42,149 nt of DNA from an uncultured archaeon (GCA_964423225.1 CAYREE010000003.1:1-42149), one strand, 5' to 3'; positions 5,664 to 28,762 are shown, numbered from the stretch's first letter. Notes: generated from the letters alone by a model not told the origin. Made by a program: numbers and translations.

Positions 5664-6758
5664 TTACTCAAGTGCTCGGGGAATCATGCCTGATAGGATC
5701 ATATGATCAGCTATCACTAGATTCATCATCGCCTCAACCACTGGGACTGCCCTAGGCACGATACAGGGATCATGACGACCCTTAACCTGGATCGAAGCCT
5801 CTTTCATCAAGTTAAGATCCACTGTCTTCTGCCTCTTCATGATCGATGATGTCGGCTTGATAGCTGCCCGTACAATAATTGGCATACCATTCGAAATGCC
5901 CCCCAGAATACCACCACAATTATTCGATCTAGTCCTAACTTGATTATTCTTAACAATGAATTCATCATTTGCCTCAGACCCCATCATCTCAGCTAGTTTA
6001 AATCCTTGACCCACCTCAACACCTTTGACGCCTGGAATACTCATCAATGCAGAAGATATGTCAGCATCAAGTCTCGCATACACCGGCTCTCCAAGTCCAG
6101 CAGGGACATTTTGAACAACACACTCCACAACCCCGCCAACACTATCACCAGCCTTTTTCGCAGCCAATACATTCTCCTCCATCAGCCTAGCAGCCTCCAC
6201 GTCAAGTGCTCGCACAGAATTACTCTCAATCAATTCCCTAACACCCTTCATCTCAAAAGTCAACGACTCATTAGACACTACACCACCAATCATGCTTGCA
6301 TATGCAACTGATCCTATATCAAATCTTTCAAGAAGCTTTGCTGCAACTGCTCCTGATGCAACTCTTCCAACAGTTTCTCTTGCTGAAGCCCTGCCACCAC
6401 CACGCCAATCATAATGCCCAAACTTTTGACGCCATGTAAAATCAGCATGACCAGGTCTAGGCGTGTTCATAAGCTTGATATACTTCCCTGAATCAACGTC
6501 TTTATTATCAACCTTCATCGAGATTGGAGTCCCCAGAGTCTTACCATCAAATACTCCAGAAAGTACCTCTACTAAATCTTCCTCACCACGATCAGTATCA
6601 ACATCGCTTTGACCTGGTCGCCTACGATTTAGAGCACTTTGCACGTCTTCGACAGATAATATTAGGTTTGAAGGGCATCCGCTAACCACACACCCAACAG
6701 CCTCCCCATGGGATTCGCCCCAAGTCGTTACTTGAAACGACCTTCCAAAAATGTGCAT
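5664..6758 (-). CDS. aroC: Chorismate synthase
   Basis: FGRSFQVTTWGESHGEAVGCVVSGCP, RRPGQS, RPGHAD, GRHDPC are classical AroC signatures. I moved the start to MHIFGRSF (6756-6758); the hydrophobic 13-aa extension in the ORF track is unlikely to be translated. Confidence 0.9.
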   Translation of the reverse strand: MHIFGRSFQVTTWGESHGEAVGCVVSGCPSNLILSVEDVQSALNRRRPGQSDVDTDRGEEDLVEVLSGVFDGKTLGTPISMKVDNKDVDSGKYIKLMNTPRPGHADFTWRQKFGHYDWRGGGRASARETVGRVASGAVAAKLLERFDIGSVAYASMIGGVVSNESLTFEMKGVRELIESNSVRALDVEAARLMEENVLAAKKAGDSVGGVVECVVQNVPAGLGEPVYARLDADISSALMSIPGVKGVEVGQGFKLAEMMGSEANDEFIVKNNQVRTRSNNCGGILGGISNGMPIIVRAAIKPTSSIMKRQKTVDLNLMKEASIQVKGRHDPCIVPRAVPVVEAMMNLVIADHMILSGMIPRALE

Positions 6759-6819
6759 TTTCCAAAAAAAAATAGTAATAATGATATATATGAACAACTA
6801 ATAGTTAAAGAAAAAAAAA

Positions 6820-7437
6820 ATGAAAAAGAATAAATATCTTATCGTTATCCTAATCCTAGTAGTAGTTTCTGGATGTATTGGTTTAACCGAAGAAGATGTG
6901 AAAACTACGAAAAATGATGAGCAAAAATTAACAAAGGATCAGATAGAAAAAATAACTGAATATGCAACCGAAAACAACAAACCAGAAGTATGCAACAGGC
7001 TTATCGGAGTAGACAAATCATTTTGCATAAACCAGGTCAAAACAAAGGCTAGAGGACCAAATAACAATATTCCAAAACTTGATAAAGAATATGTCTGGAG
7101 GCTAGAATGGGCTGAGAAATTAGAATATCCGCAGCTATGCTATTCTATTAATTCAGAAAAGAACAGGATTGCATGCATAACAAATCTAGCTATCAGTGAA
7201 AATAAACCAGCAATCTGCGAATACATTGGAGAACCAGCTAAGTCAGATTGTATAACAAGAATTGCAGCTAACAACAACCTTGCCATCTTATGCAATATAC
7301 TAAACCCTGAAGAACAGGCAAGATGTATTCTACATGTCGCTAAAGAGAAAAATAGGGCTGAACTATGTAGTTATATAAAGGGTAATAAGAAGGAAGAATG
7401 TGACATCTATTTCAATAATAACAATAAGAAACAATAA
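6820..7437 (+). CDS. Predicted lipoprotein built from five Cys-pair repeats (unrecognised family)
   Basis: MKKNKYLIVILILVVVSGC is a basic n-region plus h-region plus lipobox-like SGC (Cys19). Five units of about 25 aa follow, each with the form x-(L/I)-C-x10-11-C-I-x3-(I/V)-A. Cys pairs: 58/69, 107/119, 133/144, 158/169, 183/194. Confidence 0.7.
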   Translation: MKKNKYLIVILILVVVSGCIGLTEEDVKTTKNDEQKLTKDQIEKITEYATENNKPEVCNRLIGVDKSFCINQVKTKARGPNNNIPKLDKEYVWRLEWAEKLEYPQLCYSINSEKNRIACITNLAISENKPAICEYIGEPAKSDCITRIAANNNLAILCNILNPEEQARCILHVAKEKNRAELCSYIKGNKKEECDIYFNNNNKKQ

Positions 7438-8710: not shown

Positions 8711-9580
8711 ATGAAAGGTCTTGAAGAATCAATTATCGGATTGTATAGAAAGTGTTCAACCGACCTTCCTAAAGACGTGGAGGATTCTATTCGGAACGCA
8801 TTTGAAAAAAGCGTTGATGAAACCGAACAAAAGATACTATCAAACATCCTCGACAACATAAAGATTGCAAGAATTGAGGGTAGGCCAATATGCCAGGATA
8901 CTGGGACACCAATATTCAATATTAAAAGACCCTCTGATCTGAAGGAGGACAATATAAGAAAAACGATAATCGATGCGACAAGAAAGGCCACTGTAAACAT
9001 ACCGTTAAGACCTAATGCTATCGATCCTGTAACAGGTGAAAATTCATCCAATAATATTGGAAAAGGCATGCCGATCATATATTTCGAGGAATATGAAGGG
9101 GACACACTGATAATAGATCTGATGCTCAAGGGTGGCGGATCAGAAAACGCATCTATACTATACAAACTTCCATGCGAAAGGATAAATGCAGAAAGAGACA
9201 TTGAAGGTGTAGTGAAATGCGTGCTTGATGCAGCAGTAGTAACACAGGGTAAAGCATGCAGCCCGACAATAATCGGTGTATGCATCGGAGGATTGTCAGA
9301 TACGTCGATAACACATGCTAAAAAACAATTAATTCGAAAAATCAACGACAAGAATCCAGATGATGAACTTTTATTATTGGAAGAAGAGCTTACAAGAAAG
9401 ATAAACTCTCTTGGCATAGGTCCTATGGGACTTGGAGGAAATGCTTCTTGCCTAGCAGTTAAGGTGGGTACACTTGCTAGACATCCAGCATCCTTTTTTG
9501 TAGCAGTATCCTTTATGTGCTGGGCGGTAAGAAGAGTAAGATTAGAGACTAAAGAGTATAAAGCCTATCCAACCCAGTAG
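8711..9580 (+). CDS. Class I (Fe-S) fumarate hydratase / L(+)-tartrate dehydratase family, alpha subunit
   Basis: 289 aa; PICQDTGTP, KGGGSEN, ...CWAVRR. The size and motifs fit the N-terminal (alpha) half of Fe-S hydro-lyases. Confidence 0.85.
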   Translation: MKGLEESIIGLYRKCSTDLPKDVEDSIRNAFEKSVDETEQKILSNILDNIKIARIEGRPICQDTGTPIFNIKRPSDLKEDNIRKTIIDATRKATVNIPLRPNAIDPVTGENSSNNIGKGMPIIYFEEYEGDTLIIDLMLKGGGSENASILYKLPCERINAERDIEGVVKCVLDAAVVTQGKACSPTIIGVCIGGLSDTSITHAKKQLIRKINDKNPDDELLLLEEELTRKINSLGIGPMGLGGNASCLAVKVGTLARHPASFFVAVSFMCWAVRRVRLETKEYKAYPTQ

Positions 9581-9596
9581 ATAAGGGTCATTGAAT

Positions 9597-11132
9597 ATGA
9601 GTCGATTAAAAACAAAGAAAACACCAAAAAAGACATTCCCAGTAATCCTGATAATAATGATCCTCGGATTATTATTACGCCTGCATTTTTTCGTTGGATT
9701 CAATTGGTCTGACTCACCAGCATATGTTGATGTTATCAGGAGGATCCTCACCGGACTAGACATGTCTTACGATAATATAATGGGTGTTCGATTACTAACT
9801 TATTATCCTGCCACATTCTTCCTCTGGTTATTTGGAATCAACGAGTACGCCCTAGCATTATACCCACTATTATGCTCGCTAGGCTCGATTTATCTCACAT
9901 ACCATATCGGAAAAATGATGTTCAATAAGGAAGTTGGACTATTAGCAGCATACCTACTTTCCATATTTCCATTAAACATCTATTATTCAACATGGATTCT
10001 ACCAGATGTCCCACTAGCATTCTACCATGCACTAGCCGCATATCTCTTTATAAGACGTGAATACTTTGACAAGAGGAATATACTCTACCTGTTATCAGGA
10101 ATTATTGTTGGACTATCATATCTTGTAAGAATAAGCGGGCCATTTATCTTGTTTTTTATCTGCCCAGTAATGATACACAAAATAATAAAGACCAAAAAAA
10201 TCGAAAAAGGATTGGTCTTATTCTTCATTGGAATATTATTGATATTCATATTTGAAACATTATTTTACTGGACCGTTACAGGGTCACCCGACCCGCTTTT
10301 CAGGATAAAAAGCGAATCCTTCTTCTGGGATGACACTGCCAGAGAGGATCGATTCAACACAGATCCCATGTTTCTGCCAAGAGAGATGCTAAGGCTAAGC
10401 ACAGACTACAGGTTCCTATATCAGGAAAAATATCACGCACACTTCGGATTCTTCTACTACTTGATAATACCCGCAATCATCTACGTGTTCTACAGAAAGG
10501 ATAAGAAGGCCTCATTGATCGCATTCTGGGCAGTATCCTTATTCCTATACCTAAATTTCGGGACCATGAACCCAGTTAAATATGTTCCGATACACCGACT
10601 TGTCAGACATAGTACGATATTCACCATACCCTCACTGATAATCCTCGCATATGTTTTAACAAAATTCTTACTTAAAAGCAGGATAAGATATCAGAGGTTT
10701 ATCGCATATTCAATCATAATTATAATCTCGACAACATCAGTATTCTATACTCACCACTATGTTAAAAGACTTAACATGGAGACCGATGATCTGAGAGAGG
10801 CTTACAAGATACTTGCAGGACTAAAACCAAGAGACATATACGTTGAACCGACAGCAAGAACTCATATGAACTTCCACTTCAAGTTCAAGAGAATGGACTC
10901 TATCAAATCAATAGAATTCTTAGAGAACTGCCATGAGATAGCTGACAGCTATGTAGTATTGAATGTAAGAAAAGAATTCGTCTTCGATGAGAACGCAAAA
11001 AAGATAATCCCCGAATGTTTTCAGAATCCGCCTGGATACTGGGTACAACTTGGAAAAGTCAAGGGCGATGACATGGGGAGATATGATGAATTCGATCCAA
11101 TAATTTATTATGCGCCGTTAATCCCAAGTTAA
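9597..11132 (+). CDS. GT-C-fold polytopic glycosyltransferase (PMT_2/ArnT-like, GT39/GT83-type), paralogue group 1
   Basis: About 511 aa (ORF track starts at the TTG at 9591; ATG at 9597) with more than 10 hydrophobic segments. N-terminal loop LRLHFFVGFNWSDSPAY; TWILPDVPLAFY. A soluble C-terminal domain carries a conserved Cys pair. It is a clear paralogue of 26394..27953, 21817..23364 and 23367..24920. Confidence 0.75.
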   Translation: MSRLKTKKTPKKTFPVILIIMILGLLLRLHFFVGFNWSDSPAYVDVIRRILTGLDMSYDNIMGVRLLTYYPATFFLWLFGINEYALALYPLLCSLGSIYLTYHIGKMMFNKEVGLLAAYLLSIFPLNIYYSTWILPDVPLAFYHALAAYLFIRREYFDKRNILYLLSGIIVGLSYLVRISGPFILFFICPVMIHKIIKTKKIEKGLVLFFIGILLIFIFETLFYWTVTGSPDPLFRIKSESFFWDDTAREDRFNTDPMFLPREMLRLSTDYRFLYQEKYHAHFGFFYYLIIPAIIYVFYRKDKKASLIAFWAVSLFLYLNFGTMNPVKYVPIHRLVRHSTIFTIPSLIILAYVLTKFLLKSRIRYQRFIAYSIIIIISTTSVFYTHHYVKRLNMETDDLREAYKILAGLKPRDIYVEPTARTHMNFHFKFKRMDSIKSIEFLENCHEIADSYVVLNVRKEFVFDENAKKIIPECFQNPPGYWVQLGKVKGDDMGRYDEFDPIIYYAPLIPS

Positions 11133-11138
11133 CCGAAA

Positions 11139-11717
11139 ATGAATCTGAAAACCCCGATAAGTGAAACTGATGTTCGCAACCTAAACATCGGAGATGTAAT
11201 AGAGATAACTGGGACACTAGTCATAGGACGTGACATGGCCCACAAACACATGATAGACAAAAACCAGGATCTGCCATTTGATCTAAAGGGTGGGGTAATC
11301 TATCATTGCGGACCAGTTGTGGCAAAAAAGGGTAGTGCCTGGGAGATGATATCATGTGGACCGACCACTAGCATCAGACAAGAGCCATATGAAGAGGAAG
11401 TGATTAATAGATATGGGATAAAAGCAGTGATAGGAAAGGGTGGTATGGGCGATAAAACACTAAAAGCATTGAAAAAACAGGGGTGTGTATATCTTGCAGC
11501 AACAGGTGGAGCCGGCGCAATACTTGCTAAAAAGGTTGTAAAAATAAAAGAAGTATACATGCTCAAAGAATTCGGTATACCAGAAGCCTTCTGGATTCTT
11601 GAAGTCAATCGTTTCGGGCCTCTAATAGTCGCAATGGATTCCCATGGAAAAAGCATATACAAAGATGTCGAAGAAACCTCACAGATTAAATTAAATGAAA
11701 TACTAAATGAGTTATGA
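11139..11717 (+). CDS. Class I (Fe-S) fumarate hydratase family, beta subunit
   Basis: 192 aa; GDVIEITGTLVIGRDMAHK, IYHCGP, IGKGGMG. Typical C-terminal (beta) hydro-lyase domain. Confidence 0.85.
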   Translation: MNLKTPISETDVRNLNIGDVIEITGTLVIGRDMAHKHMIDKNQDLPFDLKGGVIYHCGPVVAKKGSAWEMISCGPTTSIRQEPYEEEVINRYGIKAVIGKGGMGDKTLKALKKQGCVYLAATGGAGAILAKKVVKIKEVYMLKEFGIPEAFWILEVNRFGPLIVAMDSHGKSIYKDVEETSQIKLNEILNEL

Positions 11718-13456: not shown

Positions 13457-15127
13457 TTATATTGTATTTAATTTATAGAAATTGAATACCCAGCTCTCAT
13501 AAGTCTCTATAGTCGATATTTTTTCCAGATGATAAGATTTCTTGATGAAATCACATATCCGGTCATTAGGCGGACTATAACACCAATAACCCTCTAGAAA
13601 ATACGCACAACCATTATCCTCAATGGTTTTTTCCACAAAGTCTGGATTTAATGCCAACATTGCAGACATCGTATTTTGTCCCTGAAATACTGTGACCGCT
13701 GGATTATTCGTAAAAACCACGCAATTATCATCTATTTCATTCACGTTTTTTATCGCAAAATCTCGGAAGATACGGGGTGATTCAGCCTGAATATCAACGG
13801 AAGATATGAAACTTACTGTAGGTAGGAATGTGATGACAGTTAAAAACGTAATAAAAAATAGTGCATCACGCCGATTAGCATATCTTCCAATCAAACGTAC
13901 CGATCTATTCGCACCCCATGAAGCAAGAATAATTAACGGTGGATAACATAGGACAGTATATCGAAATCCAATCCCACCTGAAGTGAAACTCCCTGCATAA
14001 AAAAAGAGATATGAGAGGAAAAACATGAAAAACCATGCGAAAAGAATAGGTCCAAGATAACTCTTACGCCTGATCAGAGAAACCAGACCTATCAGGGCAA
14101 ATGGAGTTAAAACAAGGAGGTGTCTACGACCATTAAACCAATAGGAGGTATTATCAGTCCAGTTCCTATCCATATAATCATACTGGAATTTACCTTCTTC
14201 CGCACCCCAATCATGGATCTGACTAAAGTAGTTAAGATGCGTGAAATGCAGGAGTGAGAACATTACAAAAATAGTCGTGAAATAGAATATATCCTCCATA
14301 AAAATATTGATGCCAATCTTTCTTGCATTCAATAACAATATTAAAAAAACAACGGGAATCATTATCAATGATTCCGGACGAGATTGGACAGCGAATGCAA
14401 GAAATCCCGCGCAACTAAAAAGAAGTGTATAAGACCTCTTCCGCACATAAGCAATGCAGAAAACAACAGATAATAACGATGGGAGAGTATGATAAATCTC
14501 ACTAGACAATGATCCAGTCCAGACTATATGTGCTGGAGTCAATGCAAGGAACAATGCGGAAAATAATGCAGTCTGCTCATCATCGAACATTATATATGTA
14601 AGGAGGAAGATGGCAAGGATAGACAATACAGATATGAGGATGTTAAAAGCATATGCATTAAACTCATTAACACCGAATACAAGATAAAACAGAGATAATG
14701 AATAAGGCAGGGCATTAGGATGTTTATCTATCTCACCCCGCATGCATTTACCGTCAATCCATTCGACAGTACAGTATAAGGCACGTCCAGAAGTGACCAT
14801 CTCTTTTGCTATCTGCATGTATATATCCTCGTCGAAAAGGATCCGGTGGACATTAGGTGGGAGATACACTCTAAGAGACAATCCAATGAGGAATATTATG
14901 CTAAGAAACACAATCACCTTCTTATCGAACCTGAATATCTCAGATAAGACAACCCTTGAACGATATACACAGTAGGCTGTGATTATAGTAGTAATAGATA
15001 AGACAATGAAATAAAAGTAGGGTGTTGAATCGGATTTGAAGTATTCCTCACGGGGAAATAATACTATAAATCCTGAGACCAATAACAATGATACCAGGAT
15101 TATATTATTATACGACTTATCCTCCAT
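13457..15127 (-). CDS. GT-C-fold polytopic glycosyltransferase (PMT/ArnT-like), divergent 556-aa paralogue
   Basis: More than 10 hydrophobic segments. The first extracytoplasmic loop carries FDEDIYMQIAKEM (a DE-x-x-Y acidic motif). The C-terminal soluble domain is Cys-containing. Its start overlaps the carbamoyltransferase stop by 11 nt. Confidence 0.65.
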   Translation of the reverse strand: MEDKSYNNIILVSLLLVSGFIVLFPREEYFKSDSTPYFYFIVLSITTIITAYCVYRSRVVLSEIFRFDKKVIVFLSIIFLIGLSLRVYLPPNVHRILFDEDIYMQIAKEMVTSGRALYCTVEWIDGKCMRGEIDKHPNALPYSLSLFYLVFGVNEFNAYAFNILISVLSILAIFLLTYIMFDDEQTALFSALFLALTPAHIVWTGSLSSEIYHTLPSLLSVVFCIAYVRKRSYTLLFSCAGFLAFAVQSRPESLIMIPVVFLILLLNARKIGINIFMEDIFYFTTIFVMFSLLHFTHLNYFSQIHDWGAEEGKFQYDYMDRNWTDNTSYWFNGRRHLLVLTPFALIGLVSLIRRKSYLGPILFAWFFMFFLSYLFFYAGSFTSGGIGFRYTVLCYPPLIILASWGANRSVRLIGRYANRRDALFFITFLTVITFLPTVSFISSVDIQAESPRIFRDFAIKNVNEIDDNCVVFTNNPAVTVFQGQNTMSAMLALNPDFVEKTIEDNGCAYFLEGYWCYSPPNDRICDFIKKSYHLEKISTIETYESWVFNFYKLNTI

Positions 15128-16811
15128 TTCTATTTACAAAATAATCGCCAATAACTAAATATCTAGCCCCTGTTTTCAAAAACACGTCGATAGCATCATC
15201 AGGAGTGTTTACAATAGGATAACCATGAAGATTATAACTAGTATTCAATACAACACCATATCCAGTTTTTTCTTTAACAGTCTCTAAAAGCCTTCTAAAC
15301 ACCGGATTCTCATCATCCAACATTTGAGGGCGTGCAGATCCATCCACATTTATCACAGAATCCATGTGACCAAGCATATCTTTTTTCACCATATAACCCA
15401 TAGTCATAAAACGGTCAAACTGATCAACATCTTCAAACAATACTTTAGCATCTTCTGAAAGAAGAGACGGACAGAAAGGCTGGAACCAATTCCTCTTCTT
15501 AATCTTAAGATTCAACTTATCCTTGATATCAAGAGAGTCAGCAGGTGCAAGAATACTCCGGTTCCCAAGAGCTCTCGGACCAAACTCCATCCTACCCTGA
15601 TACCACAGTAAAAAATTACCCTTTGATATTAGATCACCTGCAAGTTCAGGTGCATCATCCCTTTTCTCATAGCTAATATTATTTTTCCTAAGGGCTTTCT
15701 CAATCAGTGGAGCAGTATAGTCAGGTCCAAAATACACGTTTTTAACATCAGTTGATTTCATATTGTTCTCCAACATACTCGCATATAATGCAGTCCCAAC
15801 TGCAAGGCCTCCATCACCCATATGCGGGAAAACAAACCATTTCTTCAGCTTTGGATTCGTCCTAATTTTAAGATTCACTTTTATGTTCGAGGCAACTCCT
15901 CCAGACCAGCATACGTTTCGCACACCTGTTTCTTCGATAGCATTCTCAAATAACTGGCAGATATGCTTTTCCAATGTTCTTTGAGCCATATAGGCAAGTT
16001 CTTCGCGTGGAGTATTCCAAAGTATCTTCTTTAGCATTCGATACTTCCCCAGGGTTGAATACTTGCATCTGACATTCATACCGTCTACTTCGAAGAAATC
16101 AATAAGCTTGTTCTCTTCATCAGGGATGGGAAATGCATAATCTGACAATGCCATAACCTTTCCCTCATCCTCCAGTTCTCGCATACCTAGTAGATCAGTG
16201 ACCTGTTCAAAGAACAATCCAAATGAATCCCTTGCCTTTATCGATGAAACGAATTCTATCCCACCATCTTCGTATATACCCACAGTACCGGATAAGGCAT
16301 CACCCACACCATCAAGTGTGATGACAAGGGATTTCTTGAACCCACTACTTAAGGCGGATGCTGCGGCATGAGCATAGTGATGCCCGACAAAATCAAGTCG
16401 ATAATCCTTAAAACCCAGCTTATCAAGGTCTCTTCTAATCAGAAACTCTGATACCTTACGGCAAAAGGGTAGTTCAGGTATCTCAGTAACAGTATGCTTA
16501 AAAGTCTTTCTAAACTCGACTAAAGAGGGTTTATTCGTCTTCCTCCGCCTGAAAAGATAGTAATTGTCCTTCATTGAAGGGAATACACGGGTTAAAGTCT
16601 TCCCAAAATCAGATGTGTTACAAGCAACCAGACCAATATCTGCAGGCTTTAACTTTAAATAATCAAGACATGACTTGATAGACTCGCTTGGAAAGCCTAC
16701 ATGAAGTTTTTTACGGGTGATACGCTCCTCATTTACAGCAACAAGAACACTCTTCTCATCAACAATCGCGGCGCCCGCATCATGACCATCCCATATACCC
16801 AGTATATACAT
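15117..16811 (-). CDS. Carbamoyltransferase, NodU/CmcH family
   Basis: MYILGIWDGHDAGAAIVDE...VAVNEERITRKK (ASKHA/Kae1-like N-domain), HHYAHAASA, and the C-terminal YrdC-like part ...NTSYNLHGYPIV. 564-567 aa is the typical length. Confidence 0.85.
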   Translation of the reverse strand: MYILGIWDGHDAGAAIVDEKSVLVAVNEERITRKKLHVGFPSESIKSCLDYLKLKPADIGLVACNTSDFGKTLTRVFPSMKDNYYLFRRRKTNKPSLVEFRKTFKHTVTEIPELPFCRKVSEFLIRRDLDKLGFKDYRLDFVGHHYAHAAASALSSGFKKSLVITLDGVGDALSGTVGIYEDGGIEFVSSIKARDSFGLFFEQVTDLLGMRELEDEGKVMALSDYAFPIPDEENKLIDFFEVDGMNVRCKYSTLGKYRMLKKILWNTPREELAYMAQRTLEKHICQLFENAIEETGVRNVCWSGGVASNIKVNLKIRTNPKLKKWFVFPHMGDGGLAVGTALYASMLENNMKSTDVKNVYFGPDYTAPLIEKALRKNNISYEKRDDAPELAGDLISKGNFLLWYQGRMEFGPRALGNRSILAPADSLDIKDKLNLKIKKRNWFQPFCPSLLSEDAKVLFEDVDQFDRFMTMGYMVKKDMLGHMDSVINVDGSARPQMLDDENPVFRRLLETVKEKTGYGVVLNTSYNLHGYPIVNTPDDAIDVFLKTGARYLVIGDYFVNRNGG

Positions 16812-16822
16812 GCTAAACAACC

Positions 16823-18226
16823 TTAGATGTTACAGATAAAATTAACGCCAGTCCTTATTAAAGAGGGTAGCTCGCGTACTCCAAAGATGCGCAACATATT
16901 TGTAATAGACCTAGGACGCAGATAAAAACGCCTATAAGCCTTATTTCTTGCCGATTCAAGATCCATATCCTTTGAAATCACATTATTTGCATACTCGAAT
17001 GAATCCCAGCTTTTCCCATCTAAATCATCTTTATGTCGTTCATACAAAGGGGACCCTGGAAACGGTGTAGCAACATAGTATTCCGCAAAATCCAGGGGAA
17101 GATCAAGGGAAAACCTTAGAGTCTGCCGGATTGTATCTATATTCTCCCCAGGTAAACCGAACACAAAATGGCCGACCGTCGCAATCCCTGCATCATGAGC
17201 AAGTTTGACTGCCCTCTTAGAATCTTCAACCTTTATCCCTTTTTTAATATTGTCAAGCACTTCCTGGCTGGACGACTCTAATCCAAATGATATCATCCAA
17301 CATCCAGAAGCCCTCATCAGCTCAAACATTTCGGCATCAACAGTATCCACCCTACTATTACAGAACCATCTGACATCCAATCCTTCATCAATGATCGCCT
17401 GACAAAGGTCTAATACATGTGATTTATCAAGTGTGAAAGTTTCAGCGAAAAAATATAGATCTCTGACCCCAAGTTTCACAGCATGCTTGATCTCCCGGAT
17501 AATGTCTTCAACACTCCTTTTCCTGTATTTCCGACCATAGTAGAATGGGGCCACACAAAAACTACATTCAAATGGACAACCCCTACCAGTCGTGATCAAT
17601 ACATACTTACGACCGAAGACTGGTACTTTATAATTAGACAAGTCAACAAGATCCCAGGCTGGAAGCGGCAGACAAGACAAGTCCATAGCCGACCTTGATG
17701 GATTTTTAATTAGCCTTCCATTCTTGACATATGCAATTCCCGTGACTTTTTCAATCGGTTTAGAAACAAGGTCTTCTAGGGTAGATTCCGGTTCTCCGAA
17801 AATAACTCCATCTACATGACCATGATTTAGAACAGTCTCCCATAGGCTTGAAGCATGGACACCATAGACAAATACCCTACAATCCACTAGCTCACGGATT
17901 CTAGATATGAAATCCATATCATGCAGGAAAGTTGGCGTAGTAGTATTTAAGACAATCAAGTCCGGTTTGAACGATTTGATTTCATCAAGGACTGAAGACT
18001 CAATCATTGAAGCCCCCATAGCATCTATCAGCTTGACATCAGCAACATCCCTGATCATTGAGGCCATATATGCGAGTGTCATAGGAGGATAGACCGATGA
18101 GAAAACAGCTGCCTTATGCTGGCAACGACCTTCTTTCACATACAAGGATTCTGCCGGAGGGTTCAGTAATAATAGCCTAATTTTACACCACCCATAAACG
18201 AGTATAAATGGATTATTATACCTCAA
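16823..18226 (-). CDS. B12-binding-domain radical SAM enzyme (class B rSAM)
   Basis: The N-terminal Rossmann-like IRLLLLNPP...PPMTLAYMAS...DLIVLNTTTP is a cobalamin-binding-domain pattern. TTGRGCPFECSFCVAP is the CxxxCxxC rSAM cluster motif. The start codon is uncertain: the track uses the TTG at 18224-18226 and there is no in-frame ATG near the N-terminus. Confidence 0.8.
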   Translation of the reverse strand: MRYNNPFILVYGWCKIRLLLLNPPAESLYVKEGRCQHKAAVFSSVYPPMTLAYMASMIRDVADVKLIDAMGASMIESSVLDEIKSFKPDLIVLNTTTPTFLHDMDFISRIRELVDCRVFVYGVHASSLWETVLNHGHVDGVIFGEPESTLEDLVSKPIEKVTGIAYVKNGRLIKNPSRSAMDLSCLPLPAWDLVDLSNYKVPVFGRKYVLITTGRGCPFECSFCVAPFYYGRKYRKRSVEDIIREIKHAVKLGVRDLYFFAETFTLDKSHVLDLCQAIIDEGLDVRWFCNSRVDTVDAEMFELMRASGCWMISFGLESSSQEVLDNIKKGIKVEDSKRAVKLAHDAGIATVGHFVFGLPGENIDTIRQTLRFSLDLPLDFAEYYVATPFPGSPLYERHKDDLDGKSWDSFEYANNVISKDMDLESARNKAYRRFYLRPRSITNMLRIFGVRELPSLIRTGVNFICNI

Positions 18227-18290: not shown

Positions 18291-18869
18291 TTGAATAATA
18301 TCCACAGAAATATTGTATTAACAATCATACTAGCCATACTGATTTCTATAGGATGTATTTCGTATATGAAAAGTGATTTGGGGGTAGCAGACGATCTTCA
18401 AACCGTGATTAACGACGCCCTTAAAGACAAGAATGTGAAATACTGTTTTGACAGGCTGGGTGACAATAAGATTGACGTGGGAACCTGCATAATGACTGTT
18501 GCAAAAAACCTTAGTAATCCAAGGATATGCAATCAGTTCTGGAGTGTTGAAACCATGTCAGAATGCCTTTTTGAAGTCGCTAAGATACAGGAGAATGCTC
18601 AACCATGCGAACGGATCCCTTTTGACTCACCATATAAGTCAAAATGCAAATCTTATTTGAAGAATATCGCGGTTGATAAAATGAAGGTCGTAATGTGTAA
18701 GAAACTGATGGGTGAAGACAAGAACGATTGTCTGATAAGGATTGGCGAAAAGAGAAAAAGTGCGAGAATATGCACCAAACACTTTAAGAAAGGAACAGAG
18801 ATTCATACAACATGCCTATCTCGTGTAAAAGAGGCTAAAGAATCGGAAAAACAATTAGAAAATACTTGA
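18291..18869 (+). CDS. Predicted lipoprotein with five Cys-pair repeats (same family as 6820..7437)
   Basis: TTG start. The hydrophobic LTIILAILISIGC has a lipobox-like IGC (Cys22). Cys pairs at 52/66, 80/92, 106/119, 136/147, 161/175, with C-(I/L)-x3-(V/I)-(A/G) after the second Cys. Confidence 0.65.
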   Translation: MNNIHRNIVLTIILAILISIGCISYMKSDLGVADDLQTVINDALKDKNVKYCFDRLGDNKIDVGTCIMTVAKNLSNPRICNQFWSVETMSECLFEVAKIQENAQPCERIPFDSPYKSKCKSYLKNIAVDKMKVVMCKKLMGEDKNDCLIRIGEKRKSARICTKHFKKGTEIHTTCLSRVKEAKESEKQLENT

Positions 18870-18923: not shown

Positions 18924-20045
18924 ATGGGGAAAAAAATGAAAAAAGAGGGATTGCATGCTCTAGTATCCAAAAAAAAGGATAAATCCAAGGATAAAGACCA
19001 TTCATTTCAAGAAATGACCAAGACAGCGATAATCATCTTAGGTATCGCTATCATAGCTGTGATCTTCTTCTATCCAGGATCGGTTTCCCAGGATGATGAG
19101 GGTACCCAGGAGATAACCACAGATACCACTATTTCAGGCAATAATCAACAAACAATACAGAACAATCCACTAACAAAAGAGGAACAGATAAAAACCCAGA
19201 CAGGAAAAGAATCAAGCACAACTCAAGTAGAACAAATACAAAGAGAGGATGAGAATCTAAATGCTTCTCGCATATACAGTCCATATAAGATATTCAAGGA
19301 TATATACTGGATCGACGCACCAGGAAATATCCGAGCCCGAGGAGCATATGCTTTAAACACTTCAAAAGGATTTGTACTCATAGACACAGGATGTAACAAA
19401 GGATTAAAACAGCTAATAAAAAACCTGAAGACGATTGGAGTGAACCCAAACAAGATATTCCATGTATTAAACACACATGGCCACGGCGACCACTGTGGAG
19501 GAAATGAATACTTCCAGAAAAAAGGCGCAAAGATAGTCATACACGAAGATGATGTCGAAGCTCTTCAAACAGGTGATGAACAATTATACTGCAAATATTG
19601 CTGTCCTAAAGGGCTTAACCCGGTAACACCAGACATAATACTAAAAAACAGGCAGAAACTCAATTACAAAGACAAAAAATTAATTGTAAAATACTTTCCA
19701 GGACATACGCCAGGCAGCGTGATATTTTTGTTTAGAACCAATTACTCAAATAGTAGTATAAACATCTACTTCACAGGCGATACACTTCTCGGACCAGGAT
19801 GGTATGCGCATTGGCTAGGAAATAAATATTCAAACCTCACCCAATTCGCATCATCAGTAAAAAGACTTGAAAAAGAGACATTAAAAGATCCAGAAGATGA
19901 TAAATATCTGATCATCCCAGGCCACATAAAACCACATAAAGAATGGACATTCAAGATAACCGATAGAACCGATTTCCTAAAAAACCTGAAGGTAATCCAT
20001 AAAAAGATACTATTAAGGAAAAATGCTACAGGAGATATTCTATGA
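18924..20045 (+). CDS. Membrane-anchored metallo-beta-lactamase-fold hydrolase
   Basis: N-terminal basic segment plus one TM (TAIIILGIAIIAVIFFY), a Thr/Gln/Glu-rich linker, then an MBL domain with GFVLIDTG and the HxHxDH motif NTHGHGDHCGG. Confidence 0.8.
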   Translation: MGKKMKKEGLHALVSKKKDKSKDKDHSFQEMTKTAIIILGIAIIAVIFFYPGSVSQDDEGTQEITTDTTISGNNQQTIQNNPLTKEEQIKTQTGKESSTTQVEQIQREDENLNASRIYSPYKIFKDIYWIDAPGNIRARGAYALNTSKGFVLIDTGCNKGLKQLIKNLKTIGVNPNKIFHVLNTHGHGDHCGGNEYFQKKGAKIVIHEDDVEALQTGDEQLYCKYCCPKGLNPVTPDIILKNRQKLNYKDKKLIVKYFPGHTPGSVIFLFRTNYSNSSINIYFTGDTLLGPGWYAHWLGNKYSNLTQFASSVKRLEKETLKDPEDDKYLIIPGHIKPHKEWTFKITDRTDFLKNLKVIHKKILLRKNATGDIL

Positions 20046-21816: not shown

Positions 21817-23364
21817 TCAGGGTACATAATAAATAACAGACTTCCTCGCTATCTGATTCTTTTTAATCTGCTTTTTTGCATCCCTAATATTCTTTTTCTT
21901 AACCGAGTCGAATACTTTTGTCCAAGCGTCAGGGATACTCCTCAAACATTTTTTACTCGCTATTAACTTCTTCGCCTTCGGGGGTCTAAGATTATCCAAG
22001 AGTATATATGCATCCGATACTTTCTTACAATTAAGATTTTTTAACGACCTTGCTTCAAGACTAGAATCTCCCCCAGAATATATGTCAATCCAGTATCTGG
22101 CTAACTCTGAAGCATAGACAACACCCTGCTTATCATTAAGGAAAACAGCGGCTTCATGCATTCCATAAGTCCTCGTAGAATCAAAAAGCCAAAGCCTATA
22201 AGTCACAAATAAAGAGCTTAAAATAAGGGAAAAAATTAAAAGTTGTATGAATAATCGCCCCCTCTCAGAACTCCGATATAACATAATCATTGCACGAGAC
22301 ATAAGGATCGAGGCTACTGGCATCAATATCGACAAGTATCTCGCATCACGGTGTAGAAACTTAATAGGGCTAATGCTCTGCAAACCAAAATTCAGATAAA
22401 ATGCTAGGACAAAAAACCAGATGAGCAGGTATACAGTTGACTTATCTTTTCTAAGAAGGATATAAAGCAGTGATAAAACGATAACATACCCGTAAAAACC
22501 ATATAAAGGCGCTCTAATAAACTTAAAATCACCCATAAATCTATCAAGATTAAGTTCATATGAATCCGGTTCGACTGAGAATAGAATACGAGGATAGAAG
22601 ATAAGAAAATCCCTATTAGCGTTTGCATTATAATAATCTTGGATTGCCTTGAAATTATCTGCTGGATTTATACCATGGACTAAATAGACTGTTATCTGCA
22701 ATGTGAAGATTATCAAAAATCCGAGTACGAAATAACCAAGTCCGATCTCAATCCTCTTTGATACAGCATACCGATACAAACCAATGGCTATTACAACGAA
22801 TATGAAGAAGGCTCCTGAGAGTTTCACTAGATAGGCTATGCCAGAGACTAATCCTGAGATAAGAAGATTAAATGACATGTTTTGCCCATCCTTTAATCCC
22901 CGTAATAAAAAAAATGCTGACAAGGTCATATAAAATTCCAGGGGAATATCAGGCATAATCCAGGTAGCCCAAATAATATTGAAAGGTACAAGTGAGATAA
23001 AAAAGGCTGCGAGAAGAGATGTGTCCTCATCATAATAGAGTCTTGAGATCTTATAGACCAGGGGTATCAATAGCAGTGAAAATATCAGAGACTGTGAAAC
23101 AAGAACCCATACATTCATGCCAAAAACCTTCACTAATATATATAGTGGGAAGATCAGCATGATACGACTGCCAAAAACACCTGTAAGTTCATTCAAATCA
23201 AATTCTTCATCCAGGGTATAGAGTATCCGGATATATTCAAAGGTATCACTCAAGTTGACTCCAACAAAAAAATAAAGCCTTACCAGAAGAGAGACCAATA
23301 CAATCAATGATAAGATGATCAATACCTTCGAATCCTGTAAACGTTTCTTTTTATCTTTCATCAT
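21817..23364 (-). CDS. GT-C-fold polytopic glycosyltransferase (PMT_2/ArnT-like), paralogue group 1, tandem copy B
   Basis: 515 aa; LLVRLYFFVGVNLSDTFEY, ATWIMPDIPLEFY, C-terminal ...SVIYYVP. Collinear with 23367..24920 over its full length. Confidence 0.75.
   Translation of the reverse strand: MMKDKKKRLQDSKVLIILSLIVLVSLLVRLYFFVGVNLSDTFEYIRILYTLDEEFDLNELTGVFGSRIMLIFPLYILVKVFGMNVWVLVSQSLIFSLLLIPLVYKISRLYYDEDTSLLAAFFISLVPFNIIWATWIMPDIPLEFYMTLSAFFLLRGLKDGQNMSFNLLISGLVSGIAYLVKLSGAFFIFVVIAIGLYRYAVSKRIEIGLGYFVLGFLIIFTLQITVYLVHGINPADNFKAIQDYYNANANRDFLIFYPRILFSVEPDSYELNLDRFMGDFKFIRAPLYGFYGYVIVLSLLYILLRKDKSTVYLLIWFFVLAFYLNFGLQSISPIKFLHRDARYLSILMPVASILMSRAMIMLYRSSERGRLFIQLLIFSLILSSLFVTYRLWLFDSTRTYGMHEAAVFLNDKQGVVYASELARYWIDIYSGGDSSLEARSLKNLNCKKVSDAYILLDNLRPPKAKKLIASKKCLRSIPDAWTKVFDSVKKKNIRDAKKQIKKNQIARKSVIYYVP
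22916..22945. repeat. 30-nt block identical to 24466-24495 (GCTGACAAGGTCATATAAAATTCCAGGGGA on the + strand)
   Basis: Direct comparison of the two tandem GT-C genes shows the same offset (1550 nt) for a second identical 17-mer (23003-23019 and 24553-24569). Confidence 0.85.
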
Positions 23365-23366
23365 TA

Positions 23367-24920
23367 TCAGGGTACATAATAGATCACTGACCTTCTTAAT
23401 ATCAGATTCTTCTTGACCTTCAAATCATTGGTGATAACAGATGATTGCTTAGTGGAATCAAATACTTTCTCCCAATCAGAGGGAGAATTCTTCAAGCATT
23501 TTTTCCGGGATATAACGTTCTTTGTCTTAGGCGGGCGTAGATTATCAACGAGTACATATGCATTTGAGACCTTGTTACAATTAAGCTTCTTAATACCCTT
23601 GAAGGTCAGATTATGTTCTTTTCCACTATAGGTTTCGATCCACTGGCGAGCCATCATAGAGGTATATATCACTCCGTTCTTCTCCTTAATGAAATCAAAT
23701 GCCAACTGCATCCCATATGTCCTTGTTATGTCAAAAAGCCATAAACGATGAGTGACATACAATGAGCTTACGATAAGAAAGATAAAAATGATTGCTGTAA
23801 GATATCTGCCATTCCTAGAACTCCTATAAACTGTTATCAAGAAACGAGACATGATGATGATTGCTACCGGCATAAGGATTGATAAAAACCGGGCATCACG
23901 GTGAATAATCTTGAAAGTCTTCAAGCTTTGTATCCCAAAATTCAGGTATAAAGCCAATACAAACAACCATATTAGAAGCGGTATGGTCGACGTATCACGT
24001 TTATAGATTAGATAAAGAAGGGACAATACTATCACATAGCCAAACAATCCGTAGAGAGGAGCTCTTATAAAACCAAAATCACCGAAATACCTGTCGATAT
24101 TCAATGTGTTTGTTTCAGGATCGATTGAAAACAATATCAATGGATAATAGAATAAATGCCCACGATTAGCTCTTACCTCATAATAATCCTGGATATTCGA
24201 ATAATTCTTGACAAGATCAATACCTGAATAAATATATGCGCCCATCTGAAGCAGGAATATCACTAAAAAACCAATGAAAAAAAAGCTTAGTCTCCATTCA
24301 ACCTTCCTTTTAACGAAATAATTATATACTCCAAAAGCGATTACAACAAGGATGAAAAAAGCTCCAGTAACCTTTGTTAAATATGCGATACCAGTGAAAA
24401 ACCCAGATATAAGAGAATATGAGGAAAGCCTATCCTCATGCTTAAAACCCTTTAATAAAAAGAAGGCTGACAAGGTCATATAAAATTCCAGGGGAACGTC
24501 AGGCATAAGCCAAGAAGCCCAGATAATGTTAAACGGGATTAATGATATTAAGAAGGCTGCGAGAAGAGAGGTCTCCGTGTCATAATAAAGACGCGATAAT
24601 TTATAGACAAGGGGTATTAACAACAATGAGCATACCATCGACTGGGATACTAACAACATTATATTAACGCCAAAAATCTTTGTAAGGAGAAAAGGCGGAA
24701 TAATCATCATAATCCTACTTCCAAAAAGCCCAGACAAATCTTTAATCTGGAAATTCTCTTCAAGCTCATAGATTATCCTAAGATAAGTGTAGGAATCACT
24801 AAGGTTGATGCCGATAAAATAATAAAGACGAATAAACAAGGAGACTATCATAATCAATAAAATGATGTAAAAAGCATTCAAACCACTACCTTGTTTCTTC
24901 ACGGATTTATTAGATTTCAT
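23367..24920 (-). CDS. GT-C-fold polytopic glycosyltransferase (PMT_2/ArnT-like), paralogue group 1, tandem copy A
   Basis: 517 aa; LFIRLYYFIGINLSDSYTY, ASWLMPDVPLEFY, C-terminal ...SVIYYVP. A 2-nt spacer separates it from the downstream copy. Confidence 0.75.
   Translation of the reverse strand: MKSNKSVKKQGSGLNAFYIILLIMIVSLFIRLYYFIGINLSDSYTYLRIIYELEENFQIKDLSGLFGSRIMMIIPPFLLTKIFGVNIMLLVSQSMVCSLLLIPLVYKLSRLYYDTETSLLAAFLISLIPFNIIWASWLMPDVPLEFYMTLSAFFLLKGFKHEDRLSSYSLISGFFTGIAYLTKVTGAFFILVVIAFGVYNYFVKRKVEWRLSFFFIGFLVIFLLQMGAYIYSGIDLVKNYSNIQDYYEVRANRGHLFYYPLILFSIDPETNTLNIDRYFGDFGFIRAPLYGLFGYVIVLSLLYLIYKRDTSTIPLLIWLFVLALYLNFGIQSLKTFKIIHRDARFLSILMPVAIIIMSRFLITVYRSSRNGRYLTAIIFIFLIVSSLYVTHRLWLFDITRTYGMQLAFDFIKEKNGVIYTSMMARQWIETYSGKEHNLTFKGIKKLNCNKVSNAYVLVDNLRPPKTKNVISRKKCLKNSPSDWEKVFDSTKQSSVITNDLKVKKNLILRRSVIYYVP
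24466..24495. repeat. 30-nt block identical to 22916-22945
   Basis: See 22916-22945. Confidence 0.85.
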
Positions 24921-26387: not shown

Positions 26388-26393
26388 TTGTTA

Positions 26394-27953
26394 ATGATAG
26401 ATGAAATAATGGATAAACCAGGTAAGAGACATATAATCATCATCATACTATTCGCCTTGCTGATAAGAATCGTATTTCTTGTAGGATATAATCTGTCTGA
26501 CGACCTCGGATACGCCGAAACTGCAGGTATCATCATTTCAGGAAAAGAATATGTGTCTACAACAACCACGTTCTACCTGGTATCAAACATGCGATTGTTG
26601 ATGGTCTATCCAATAGCATTATCATTCAAAATCTTTGGTGTCAACGATTATTCCCTTGTAATATATCCCTTATTATGCTCAATTGGAGGTATCTTCATAA
26701 CCTATAAACTTGGCGAGATGCTCTTCAACAAAGAGACAGGCATCCTCGCAAGCCTACTTCTTTCCTTTTATCCAATGGATGTGATCTATGCTACATGGGC
26801 TATGCCCGACGTGCCGATAGCTTTTTTCATGGCATCCGCCACATACTTTTTTTTAAAAGCCGAAAAACTCCGGGAAAATGAAAAATACTCGATCAAAGGA
26901 ATAAACATCAATAAAAGAGGAGTCTTATTGGTAGTTACCGGACTCATAATCGGTGTTTCCTACCTGATAAGGGTCTCAGGTCTAATGATCCTATTAGTCA
27001 TAATAACATACATCCTTTATCGAACATGGATTACAAAAAGAATAAAACTGGATTATTGTTGGATACTTACAGGTATCCTAATCATAATATTTCTAGAAGC
27101 GTGTTTTTACTACACTCAATTAGGGAGCATTGATGGATTAAGCCTAAGATATAAAGCCATTGAAGATACTTTTGGATCCACACCAGGCTACCATGACCAG
27201 TATTATTTCTTAAGAGGTATGCTTAATTTAGACTACGAAAACAATTTCATGTGGGAGAACAGATATGATGTGCATTACGGACTCTACTATTATCTGATAA
27301 TCCCCGCAATAATAATCTGTATTCTAACAAGGGATAAAAAAGCCTTCCCCGTGATAATCTGGTTGATTGCATTATTCCTATGGTCAAATTATGGGTCAAT
27401 GAGCATTACAAAATATGTCCTAATACACAAGCTACACAGACATATGACAATAATAGCGATACCATCCATGCTAATACTATCCAAAGTCATTATCGACAGG
27501 TTCTATAACAAGAAATCCATTATTCCAAGGACGATCGGCTTGCTTATAATAATCGCACTATTTACCACCTCAATTTTTTATATTTCAAACAGGTACGTGT
27601 ACTTAAAAGCCTCAGTACATGACTTCACACTAATGCATACAATATTAAAAGACTTAGACGACAAACCGATTTATGGCGATCCAGTCGTACGAACCCAATT
27701 GAAATACAAATTCAAATATAAGAAAAATGAATTGATCAGAACAATTGAAAATGTTAAAGAATGCGATGAGATAAAAGACGCATATGTGATAATGAAGGGT
27801 TCGCGCGGATTTGTTGACAATGAATTCTTTATCAATTCAATACCAGAATGCATGTATGAGCCACCCTCAAACTGGGATCTGATAGAGATTATCAAAGGCC
27901 CAAAAATAGATTTTTTTAGCTCATATGATCCAGTAGTATACTATGTCAGATAA
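26394..27953 (+). CDS. GT-C-fold polytopic glycosyltransferase (PMT_2/ArnT-like), paralogue group 1
   Basis: About 519 aa (track start is the TTG at 26388; first ATG at 26394). LLIRIVFLVGYNLSDDLGY, ATWAMPDVPIAFF, and a C-terminal domain with C-x28-C as in 9597..11132, its closest paralogue by eye. Confidence 0.75.
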   Translation: MIDEIMDKPGKRHIIIIILFALLIRIVFLVGYNLSDDLGYAETAGIIISGKEYVSTTTTFYLVSNMRLLMVYPIALSFKIFGVNDYSLVIYPLLCSIGGIFITYKLGEMLFNKETGILASLLLSFYPMDVIYATWAMPDVPIAFFMASATYFFLKAEKLRENEKYSIKGININKRGVLLVVTGLIIGVSYLIRVSGLMILLVIITYILYRTWITKRIKLDYCWILTGILIIIFLEACFYYTQLGSIDGLSLRYKAIEDTFGSTPGYHDQYYFLRGMLNLDYENNFMWENRYDVHYGLYYYLIIPAIIICILTRDKKAFPVIIWLIALFLWSNYGSMSITKYVLIHKLHRHMTIIAIPSMLILSKVIIDRFYNKKSIIPRTIGLLIIIALFTTSIFYISNRYVYLKASVHDFTLMHTILKDLDDKPIYGDPVVRTQLKYKFKYKKNELIRTIENVKECDEIKDAYVIMKGSRGFVDNEFFINSIPECMYEPPSNWDLIEIIKGPKIDFFSSYDPVVYYVR

Positions 27954-27960
27954 TAGAGGA

Positions 27961-28761
27961 TTATTTCACACAGAAATCTTCCCGCATACCCTGCATCCCA
28001 GGACATTCGCAAAGCCTATTCGTATCCATATAAACATTGACTAATCCCTGGATGCAAGTATAAGAATAATCCCTGATATTAATACAATCCGATAACATGG
28101 CGCACGGATCCTCTCCATAAGCCCTGTTTAAGATATGTCCCATACATAGGCCGAAATGATGATAACAAGTGTCAACTGCTTGTGGATTTGTGTTGATGAG
28201 ATCATTATGAACTGTCTCGCAAAAATTTAATGATAAGTATTTATCTTTGTTGCAGACCAGTTCCTGGATATGTCCGATACAATGATGTTGGAATATATCT
28301 GAATTTAGACATGATTCATACGCATTTTCAAAGTTGTCTTGGACAATTGCTAATTGCTCTGCATTTTTAAAAAAACATTCGCTTCGCCAAATTTGATCTT
28401 CAACAGAATTGCACATTTTATTCACATTATCCTTGATTTCTTGATAGTTTGGCGTCTCGCGGATAATATGATTGGAGACCTCGATGATGCAGTGGCTCTT
28501 TAAATGAGTCCTCTTTATCTTGTAGCAGTAATCCAAACCCTTTGTATAGTTTATATTGTAAGAATAACTTGATTTTAGGAAATAACAGTAATCACGGTAG
28601 TTATCAGTAAATTCGTCACAATTCATTGAAACACGATAGTTTTCAGATATGCTTAGTAATTGATAGGAATAATATACGGTTATCAACAGGGTAAAACACA
28701 TTAGCCCATAGGCTATGATCTGTCGTCTCTTACTATTTTGTTTTCTTGCTTCTTGATCCAT
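27961..28761 (-). CDS. Membrane-anchored Cys-rich protein (18 extracytoplasmic Cys, mostly C-x9-11-C pairs); same family as 6820..7437
   Basis: 266 aa; N-terminal basic region plus TM (IIAYGLMCFTLLITVYY), then repeated C-x10-11-C units (48/59, 79/91, 117/129, 151/161, 170/181 ...). Its start lies 1 nt after the upstream stop. Confidence 0.6.
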   Translation of the reverse strand: MDQEARKQNSKRRQIIAYGLMCFTLLITVYYSYQLLSISENYRVSMNCDEFTDNYRDYCYFLKSSYSYNINYTKGLDYCYKIKRTHLKSHCIIEVSNHIIRETPNYQEIKDNVNKMCNSVEDQIWRSECFFKNAEQLAIVQDNFENAYESCLNSDIFQHHCIGHIQELVCNKDKYLSLNFCETVHNDLINTNPQAVDTCYHHFGLCMGHILNRAYGEDPCAMLSDCINIRDYSYTCIQGLVNVYMDTNRLCECPGMQGMREDFCVK

Positions 28762-28762
28762 T

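Follow-up and report, generated by a model that had tools for sequence, protein, structure and literature searches.

A paired-cysteine repeat of predicted helical hairpins in four predicted exported proteins of an uncultured archaeon

Four genes encoding small Cys-rich proteins, here called A, B, C and D, lie on a 42,149-nucleotide stretch of DNA from an uncultured archaeon (GCA_964423225.1, CAYREE010000003.1:1-42149), which we refer to in its entirety as the window. A first-pass annotation of the window had grouped the four as members of an unrecognised repeat family whose units carry two Cys each. The DNA is archaeal, as its genes include those for an RFC small subunit, TruD and aminoacyl-tRNA synthetases of archaeal type, and we take its source to be a marine member of the Altiarchaeota. 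The RFC protein shares 83% identity with that of a Candidatus Altiarchaeota metagenome-assembled genome (MAG), and nearly all of its next ~30 best matches come from Altiarchaeota or unclassified archaeal MAGs. The four proteins and the parts of A are laid out as follows.

6820..7437 (+): protein A, a predicted lipoprotein of 205 aa in which a cap helix at the N-terminus precedes a single isolated Cys-pair unit, a helix lacking Cys and four Cys-pair units in tandem
6820..6876 (+): signal peptide of A with lipobox V-S-G-C19; sequence MKKNKYLIVILILVVVSGC, basic and hydrophobic
7123..7425 (+): four tandem 25-residue Cys-pair hairpin units of A, aa 102-202, with Cys 107/119, 133/144, 158/169 and 183/194
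18291..18869 (+): protein B, 192 aa from a TTG start, a paralogue of A with a relaxed lipobox I-S-I-G-C22 (...ILISIGC22) and five tandem Cys-pair units at aa 46-183 (nt 18426..18839)
27961..28761 (-): protein C, 266 aa, signal anchor at aa 15-36, four Cys-pair hairpins at aa 46-171 and a divergent Cys-rich helical tail at aa 177-266
28763..29245 (-): protein D, 160 aa, N-in signal anchor at aa 29-48 and three Cys-pair units with longer spacers at aa 53-152

Downstream of its lipobox, A contains ten Cys that fall into five pairs (58/69, 107/119, 133/144, 158/169 and 183/194). Gaps within pairs are 11, 12, 11, 11 and 11 residues and those between tandem pairs are 14, so that the last four pairs recur with a period of 25 residues. 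B has pairs 52/66, 80/92, 106/119, 136/147 and 161/175, with gaps of 11-14 residues within and 14-17 between them. The two proteins are homologous (BLASTP E 7e-8), and their full-length alignment places every Cys but the last in register. When the mature sequences were shuffled, the observed number of 10-14-residue gaps was reached in 0/20,000 trials for A and again in 0/20,000 for B. The initial description of both proteins as a signal or lipobox followed by five two-Cys units, with Cys 11-14 residues apart, was thus borne out.

Gene callers place the start of B at Met26 (167 aa, P0002); an in-frame TTG at 18291 (18291..18366) adds a hydrophobic signal peptide and the Cys22 lipobox. Tested against the lipobox pattern [LVI][ASTVI][GAS]C, A is canonical, and its match to the LPAM_1 model is weak (E 0.025, under the Pfam cut-off); S-I-G-C22 of B satisfies only a relaxed PROSITE-type rule and needs the TTG start. 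The N-terminus derived from the TTG start aligns with the N-terminus of A, and the longer form of B is probably the real one.

In D, the three pairs (57/69, 89/101 and 135/147) each have a gap of exactly 12 residues and are separated by spacers of 20 and 34. D and its orthologue in the closest MAG (L083) share 41% identity and all six Cys. The original view of D as a transmembrane (TM) anchor followed by three pairs was confirmed. C is less regular. It carries 18 ectodomain Cys, the first eight of which form four pairs (48/59, 79/91, 117/129 and 151/161, with gaps of 11, 12, 12 and 10 and spacers of 20-26 between pairs). The rest, in the C-terminal third, are irregularly spaced, and two of the four canonical pairs score with the family profile described below, so that C has four or five recognisable units and the estimate of about nine pairs was too high. 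The L083 orthologue of C keeps 16 of the 18 Cys; C170 and C206 are both lost, replaced by Ser and Arg. In the same shuffling procedure, the observed number of gaps was reached in 69/20,000 trials for C and 624/20,000 for D. No relatives of C or of D turned up in two scans of metagenomes.

C and D carry no lipobox and are anchored instead by a TM helix. Both N-termini consist of a Lys/Arg-rich segment followed by one hydrophobic TM helix, which by the positive-inside rule would leave the remainder of each protein outside. Together with the lipoboxes of A (canonical) and B (relaxed), this agrees with the earlier suggestion that the repeats are displayed outside the membrane.

A much larger family emerged when a profile of A and B was run with exhaustive HMMER against 1.84 billion representative proteins. 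Matches were found in 638 protein clusters at E<=1e-3, and in 35 at E<=1e-10, with the best homologues reaching E 3e-20. The family became visible in this search alone: word-index searches (shared 5-residue words) with A, with the A+B profile or with a 50-sequence family profile returned almost only the queries themselves, and the family alignment has no conserved stretch of 7-10 columns. Since neither A nor B has a relative above 90 bits in the exhaustive search, the family appears to be fast-evolving. The listed relatives are 200-1,000 residues long and composed almost wholly of the Cys-pair unit, and in 78 of 148 the N-terminal region contains a lipobox-like motif. The distribution of Cys-Cys gaps in the relatives has peaks at 12 (n=1130) and 14 (n=1517), which together indicate a 26-residue repeat.

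From 823 perfectly spaced external units we derived the consensus (K/T)(K/N)(D/N)P(S/E)(L/I)-C-(E/D)(K)I-x-D-x3-(K/R)(D/N)-x-C-(Y/L/I/F)-x2-(V/I/L)-A, or in short DPxLCxxIxDxxx(K/R)DxC(Y/L)xx(V/I)A. Unit 2 of D, ICGQIKDQTIRDACYYELV, lies near this consensus, and phmmer matches D to many family members. A and B follow it at the aliphatic positions Cys1-1 and Cys1+3, at K/R-D (Cys2-3/-2), at Y/L/I/F (Cys2+1) and at V/I/L-A (Cys2+4/+5); the D-P cap is absent from most of their units, and their loop is shorter by one residue than that of the family.

A hidden Markov model (HMM) built from the units of A and B alone gave C no more than 7.5 bits and did not find D. In its place, an HMM of the 823 external units, which include no window sequences, was run on all 256 window frames of >=50 codons. 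It recovered D (2e-11), A (1e-8), B (4e-8) and C (2e-6), and no other frame did better than E 0.74. Because the relatives had been gathered with A and B only, this test is independent for C and D. Comparison by hhalign with a clean four-unit family alignment gave the following values.

A+B: 96.8%, E 2e-10
D + orthologue: 90.9%, E 1e-6
C + orthologue: 45%, E 2e-4, over two units (aa 76-135)

These results establish A, B and D as clear members and indicate that C has at least two bona fide units within a more divergent Cys-rich helical domain. The first-pass annotation was therefore right to place the four proteins in one family, the external-unit HMM finding exactly these four in the window, and wrong as to its scope, which extends to at least 638 clusters.

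Named relatives come from Candidatus Micrarchaeota, Altiarchaeota, 'uncultured archaeon', Parcubacteria, Shapirobacteria and one Bacteroidetes MAG, and with the exception of P0034, discussed below, they are annotated as 'hypothetical' or 'uncharacterised' throughout. Other Altiarchaeota have members at different genomic positions, for example beside RFC in L011 and L034. Two relatives, P0108 (731 aa, from Altiarchaeota) and P0141 (615 aa), begin with a six-TM domain, and an unassigned middle domain comes between it and the Cys-pair array; no match to Pfam was obtained. They represent a second membrane-embedded architecture of the family. Small lipoprotein members (P0006, P0026, P0049 and P0119 among them) share a cap helix ending '...A(I/V)xxGD(P/A)xxC' just before the first unit, and aa 39-57 of A and aa 35-51 of B are a divergent version of it. 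This N-terminal cap helix may define a subfamily.

The repeat appears to constitute an unnamed family, without a match in curated libraries. Apart from the weak signal-peptide matches, no Pfam-A or NCBIfam family matched A-D at E<=10, and ten canonical relatives had no match in either library. Among 110 relatives scanned against Pfam, no family was common to more than one protein. The Sel1 Pfam model matched none of A-D at E<=10 and none of the 110 relatives at E<=1e-3, and neither the models of the tetratricopeptide repeat (TPR) clan CL0020 nor the Myxococcus-repeat models of Pfam and NCBIfam matched A-D or the relatives. All PDB sequences were searched with three profiles, again without a match.

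Structure prediction gave all-alpha models. AlphaFold2 was supplied with a 50-row alignment of family segments for A and a 13-row alignment for C. The model of A has a mean predicted local distance difference test score (pLDDT) of 84.5, rising to 91-98 in the tandem units, whose helices span residues 104-109/113-126, 130-135/140-151, 155-160/163-176 and 180-185/189-202. Each modelled unit comprises a 6-residue helix with Cys1, a turn of 3-4 residues and a helix of 12-16 residues whose first turns contain Cys2. The rod is completed by a cap helix at the N-terminus (aa 39-51) and a helix without Cys (aa 89-101). The model of C (pLDDT 83.6, above 90 over aa 50-170 and ~70 in the tail) has a long TM helix followed by twelve helices, with Cys1 at a helix end and Cys2 early in the next. 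Both models are in keeping with the helical-hairpin solenoid first proposed.

In Foldseek searches of the PDB the best E-values were no lower than 0.18 for A and 0.013 for C, at TM-scores of ~0.3; no match below E 0.01 was thus obtained, and the claim that the repeat belongs to no named family held at the level of both sequence and structure. The weak matches were generic alpha-solenoids, namely designed repeat proteins, VPS35, alpha-SNAP and the TPR domains of LGN and KLC, and the viral library BFVD added weak Sel1/TPR matches. The resemblance to LGN, KLC and alpha-SNAP is weak and at the level of fold. HcpB and HcpC were not in the top 50 PDB matches of either model. As only generic solenoids were matched, the fold class (alpha/alpha solenoid) is already known and the Cys-pair unit is not among solved structures. 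We rate A-D as a new repeat family inside a known fold class.

Taking these results together, we think it rather probable that A-D are exported, membrane-tethered, disulfide-stapled alpha/alpha-solenoid binding scaffolds, with the involvement of D and C in glycosylation held less firmly. The proteins would be tethered by a lipid on the lipobox Cys in A and B and by the N-terminal signal-anchor helix in C and D. Their unit would be a 25-26-residue helix-turn-helix with Cys1 in the first helix, which is short, and Cys2 in the initial turns of the second, longer one, each hairpin being stapled by a Cys1-Cys2 disulfide, and the stacked hairpins would form a rigid rod or arc outside the cytoplasmic membrane. 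Altiarchaeum is reported to have a double membrane, and the outer face of the cytoplasmic membrane in Altiarchaeota could thus be a periplasm-like space. We infer the disulfides, the surface exposure and the binding role from the features described above. The conserved Asp-Pro and (Lys/Arg)-Asp may be read as helix caps, the Ala as a helix-helix contact and the aliphatic positions as core. Since all conserved positions look structural and the rest are variable, and since the family is exported, paralogue-rich and fast-evolving, a binding scaffold of the TPR, Sel1 or Hcp type is suggested rather than an enzyme.

One disulfide per hairpin, joining Cys1 to Cys2, is the most likely arrangement. 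In A-D the Cys1-Cys2 distance is constant at 10-14 residues, whereas the distance from Cys2 to the next Cys1 varies (14, 17, 20, 22, 26, 34 and 38), which points to pairing within the hairpin. In unit 1 of A the Cys pair stands alone, and the conservation of all six Cys of D in its orthologue also favours such pairing. The joint loss of C170 and C206 in the orthologue of C suggests that these two residues pair with each other and that a single disulfide was lost; it contradicts the pairings 170/181 and 199/206 assigned earlier.

Cys pairs could instead be functional, binding metal, haem or iron-sulfur clusters or acting in a thiol-disulfide relay, which would make A-D extracytoplasmic redox or metal-handling proteins. 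We consider this unlikely. Although Cys are the only invariant residues of the unit, the profile of 823 units contains no CXXC or CXXCH and no conserved His, Met or acidic ligand, and the other conserved residues look like caps and core. Stable disulfides are less to be expected in the hosts, which are anaerobes or microaerophiles, and a precedent exists in COA7, a Sel1-like repeat protein with several disulfides that binds haem and has disulfide reductase activity (PMC8892353). Against this, a spacing of 10-13 residues across a helix-turn-helix suits a staple, and isolated single pairs exist (unit 1 of A, the units of D).

For D and C, gene order suggests a partnership with glycosylation enzymes. 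Their neighbours are as follows.

29242..29907 (-): GT2, dolichyl-phosphate sugar synthase-like (PF00535, E 2e-24), co-transcribed upstream of D and C
26388..27953 (+): GT-C (PMT_2) glycosyltransferase (PF13231/PF02366), convergent with C

The stop codon of the GT2 gene and the start codon of D overlap, the two genes sharing four nucleotides, and C is separated from the D stop codon by one nucleotide. In the window, D-C thus directly follows GT2 and converges on GT-C. In L083 the D and C orthologues overlap each other and follow a same-strand GT-C gene after 22 nt, the order being a TyrRS/TrpRS-type tRNA synthetase, GT2, a radical SAM gene on the opposite strand, GT-C, D and C. Comparison of L083 7203..9984 with window 26388..29907 reveals a local rearrangement between close relatives that left the D-C pair intact in both. 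A further connection is provided by P0034 (667 aa, JGI/IMG, named ArnT-like glycosyltransferase), in which a PMT_2 GT-C domain (Pfam aa 89-222) is fused to about eight C-terminal Cys-pair units (aa 462-666). The closest window relative of its GT-C part is the GT-C protein encoded at 26388..27953, and its PMT_2 domain is the sole Pfam domain with a plausible functional link among the 110 scanned relatives.

From this arrangement, D and C probably act as a pair alongside polyprenol-linked glycosylation enzymes. They might serve as an acceptor-holding module working in trans with the GT2 and GT-C enzymes, much as the lumenal TPR domain does in TMTC-type GT-C enzymes. We tentatively restrict any glycosylation link to the D-C pair and do not extend it to A or B. 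The earlier statement that all four genes adjoin GT-C, GT2 or hydrolase genes held for D-C, which lies beside GT2 and GT-C, and failed for A, which is flanked by chorismate synthase and malic enzyme. A bolder proposal is that the Cys-pair hairpin is an undescribed, widespread extracytoplasmic repeat of archaea and bacteria with small genomes (Altiarchaeota, DPANN archaea and bacteria of the Candidate Phyla Radiation, CPR) which in D-C would be a detachable, disulfide-rigidified acceptor-recognition subunit of a polyprenol-dependent GT-C; in this full form we regard it as improbable.

Several observations weigh against the scaffold interpretation and its extension to glycosylation. No family gene was found nearby in 46 other loci around GT2 homologues, the GT-C fusion occurs in 1/148 listed relatives, and the adjacency of D-C to glycosyltransferase genes was seen in two closely related genomes. 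A and B have unrelated neighbours and lack syntenic counterparts; the family member P0156 sits among housekeeping genes, and the L011 and L034 members are likewise in unrelated contexts. As to the disulfides, the first gap, last gap and parity of the Cys arrays in the 148 relatives do not discriminate within-unit from between-unit pairing, and the host habitats are largely anoxic, where extracellular disulfides are less secure.

The surroundings of the four genes are mixed. B is flanked by a B12-radical-SAM gene and a metallo-beta-lactamase-fold gene. Among 80 malic enzyme loci, none was found to have an A-like gene alongside, and in six loci of Altiarchaeota the surroundings of EPSP synthase contain neither an A-like nor a B-like gene. 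The window as a whole consists of housekeeping genes interspersed with eight GT-C (PMT_2-like) genes and is not the dedicated glycosylation locus that the first-pass annotation had made of it.

Eight GT-C (PMT_2/PMT-like) genes in 42 kb: 9591..11132, 13457..15127, 21817..23364, 23367..24920, 26388..27953, 34879..36210, 36203..37555 and 37552..38901

They fall into three groups, made up of a set of four paralogues, three genes in tandem and one gene by itself. For the second of the tandem three (36203..37555) there is no Pfam match, but it is a clear paralogue of the genes on either side (E ~1e-85 to 1e-112). One GT-C gene (9591..11132) splits the class I fumarase alpha and beta genes (8711..9580 and 11139..11717) on the same strand, with gaps of 10 and 6 nt, an odd insertion into a metabolic gene pair. 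A same-strand cluster at 13457..18226 (-) combines genes for a B12-binding radical SAM enzyme, a carbamoyltransferase of the NodU/CmcH type and a GT-C, which suggests that a glycan or lipid-linked sugar is modified by carbamoylation or methylation. In L083, the closest MAG, a related radical SAM gene (5666..7153) is placed between GT2 and GT-C.

The abundance of GT-C genes raises the alternative that A-D are mainly cargo, that is, structural proteins abundant in the surface coat or the periplasm and modified by the eight GT-C enzymes encoded in the same 42 kb. All four proteins have export signals, and cysteine-rich extracellular CPR proteins have been proposed to function in attachment (PMC4736985). 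We nevertheless consider a cargo role unlikely. N-X-S/T sequons number zero in A and one each in B, C and D, with no enrichment at repeat positions in 823 units, making A-D unlikely as preferred N-glycan acceptors; a candidate role as glycan acceptors was dropped for lack of this enrichment. Moreover, a Ser/Thr-rich linker is absent from all four, and A and B do not adjoin glycosyltransferases. Just downstream of B, the metallo-beta-lactamase-fold protein encoded at 18924..20045 has a TM helix at its N-terminus and, after it, a linker rich in Thr, Ser and Gln (~aa 57-105). Linkers of this kind are the type of segment that PMT-type O-mannosyltransferases modify, and this protein is a more plausible glycan acceptor than A-D.

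Gene A was also sought in other sequence collections. Contigs in four other metagenome records (ENA, JGI) carry DNA-identical copies, which leaves a selection signal unreadable, and gene A is found in sequencing runs of marine or seawater metagenomes. Genome contigs scanned for its exact pattern gave no match, and words of gene A were not found in metatranscriptome runs of the same study.

Could the units simply be divergent Sel1-like or TPR repeats, and A-D ordinary members of the Helicobacter Hcp/Sel1-like repeat family? The design is the same, a secreted superhelix of disulfide cross-linked helix-turn-helix repeats (PMC3851747), and TPR and Sel1 proteins were among the weak Foldseek matches. 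The period of 25-26 residues, however, differs from the 36-38 of Sel1-like repeats and the 34 of TPRs, the Sel1 and TPR Pfam models match neither A-D nor any of the 110 relatives, and HcpB and HcpC were not among the top Foldseek matches, the best TM-scores being ~0.3. In addition, the disulfide of Hcp connects successive repeats, running from the end of one to the beginning of the following one (PMC3851747); here it is across the hairpin turn that the spacing is constant. We therefore hold this explanation to be very unlikely. That the pattern is a chance or compositional artefact, or that the open reading frames are not genes, can be discounted almost entirely: D is marginal by Cys spacing alone (624/20,000 shuffles) and RNA evidence for gene A was not found in the metatranscriptome runs, yet no shuffle in 20,000 reproduced the spacing of A or B, hundreds of homologues exist down to E 3e-20, the C and D orthologues conserve their Cys, and gene A is present in identical form on contigs of four other metagenome records.

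If the scaffold interpretation is correct, a repeat present in at least several hundred protein clusters has been absent from Pfam-A, NCBIfam and the PDB. These clusters stem from lineages with cell surfaces that have hardly been characterised (Altiarchaeota, DPANN archaea and CPR bacteria), and a named and modelled repeat would allow many exported proteins now called 'hypothetical' to be annotated. It would offer a handle on the surface interactions of organisms living attached to other cells or depending on them, and a very short (25-26-residue) disulfide-stapled solenoid would join the natural repeat scaffolds, which is of interest to protein design. The GT-C fusion and the D-C operon provide a testable lead on acceptor choice by archaeal GT-C paralogues, the function being at present inferred.

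Four known systems invite comparison. In their anchor, A (canonical lipobox), B (relaxed lipobox) and about half of the listed relatives resemble lipobox lipoproteins, which in archaea undergo AliA/AliB-dependent lipidation; thioether-linked archaeol lipidation of the lipobox Cys is known in Haloferax (PMC12462473). Lipidation is predicted here, and the likeness covers the anchor alone and not the repeat domain, C and D having a TM anchor. The large cysteine-rich extracellular proteins of CPR bacteria and the Myxococcus cysteine-rich repeat are likewise exported and Cys-rich, and occur in small-genome uncultured lineages, where a role in rigidity or attachment has been proposed (PMC4736985); they differ in being very large proteins built of another repeat type.

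Closer in design are HcpB and HcpC (Sel1-like, PF08238; PDB 1KLX, 1OUV), which are secreted and form a superhelix of tandem helix-turn-helix units with a Cys pair per unit, in Hcp a disulfide that stabilises the solenoid. Hcp proteins belong to fast-evolving paralogous families and are thought to be interaction scaffolds (PMC3851747, PMC1941758). The unit described here is nevertheless shorter (25-26 versus 36-38 residues), with a first helix of ~6 residues in A and B, and shows no sequence-profile match and no preferential structural match to Hcp.

Finally, eukaryotic TMTC O-mannosyltransferases combine a GT-C membrane domain with lumenal TPRs (PMC7801869). As in TMTC1-4, a solenoid is expected here on the non-cytoplasmic side next to a PMT-clan GT-C (PMC7801869), fused to it in P0034 and encoded beside GT-C and GT2 genes in D-C. 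The present repeats differ in matching no TPR model, in having two Cys per unit and in a period of 26 rather than 34 residues. The window repeat proteins are, moreover, separate polypeptides, and A and B show no GT-C association. Should the proposed role of D-C prove true, its repeat would be a prokaryotic, trans-acting counterpart of the TPR domain in the eukaryotic TMTC O-mannosyltransferases.

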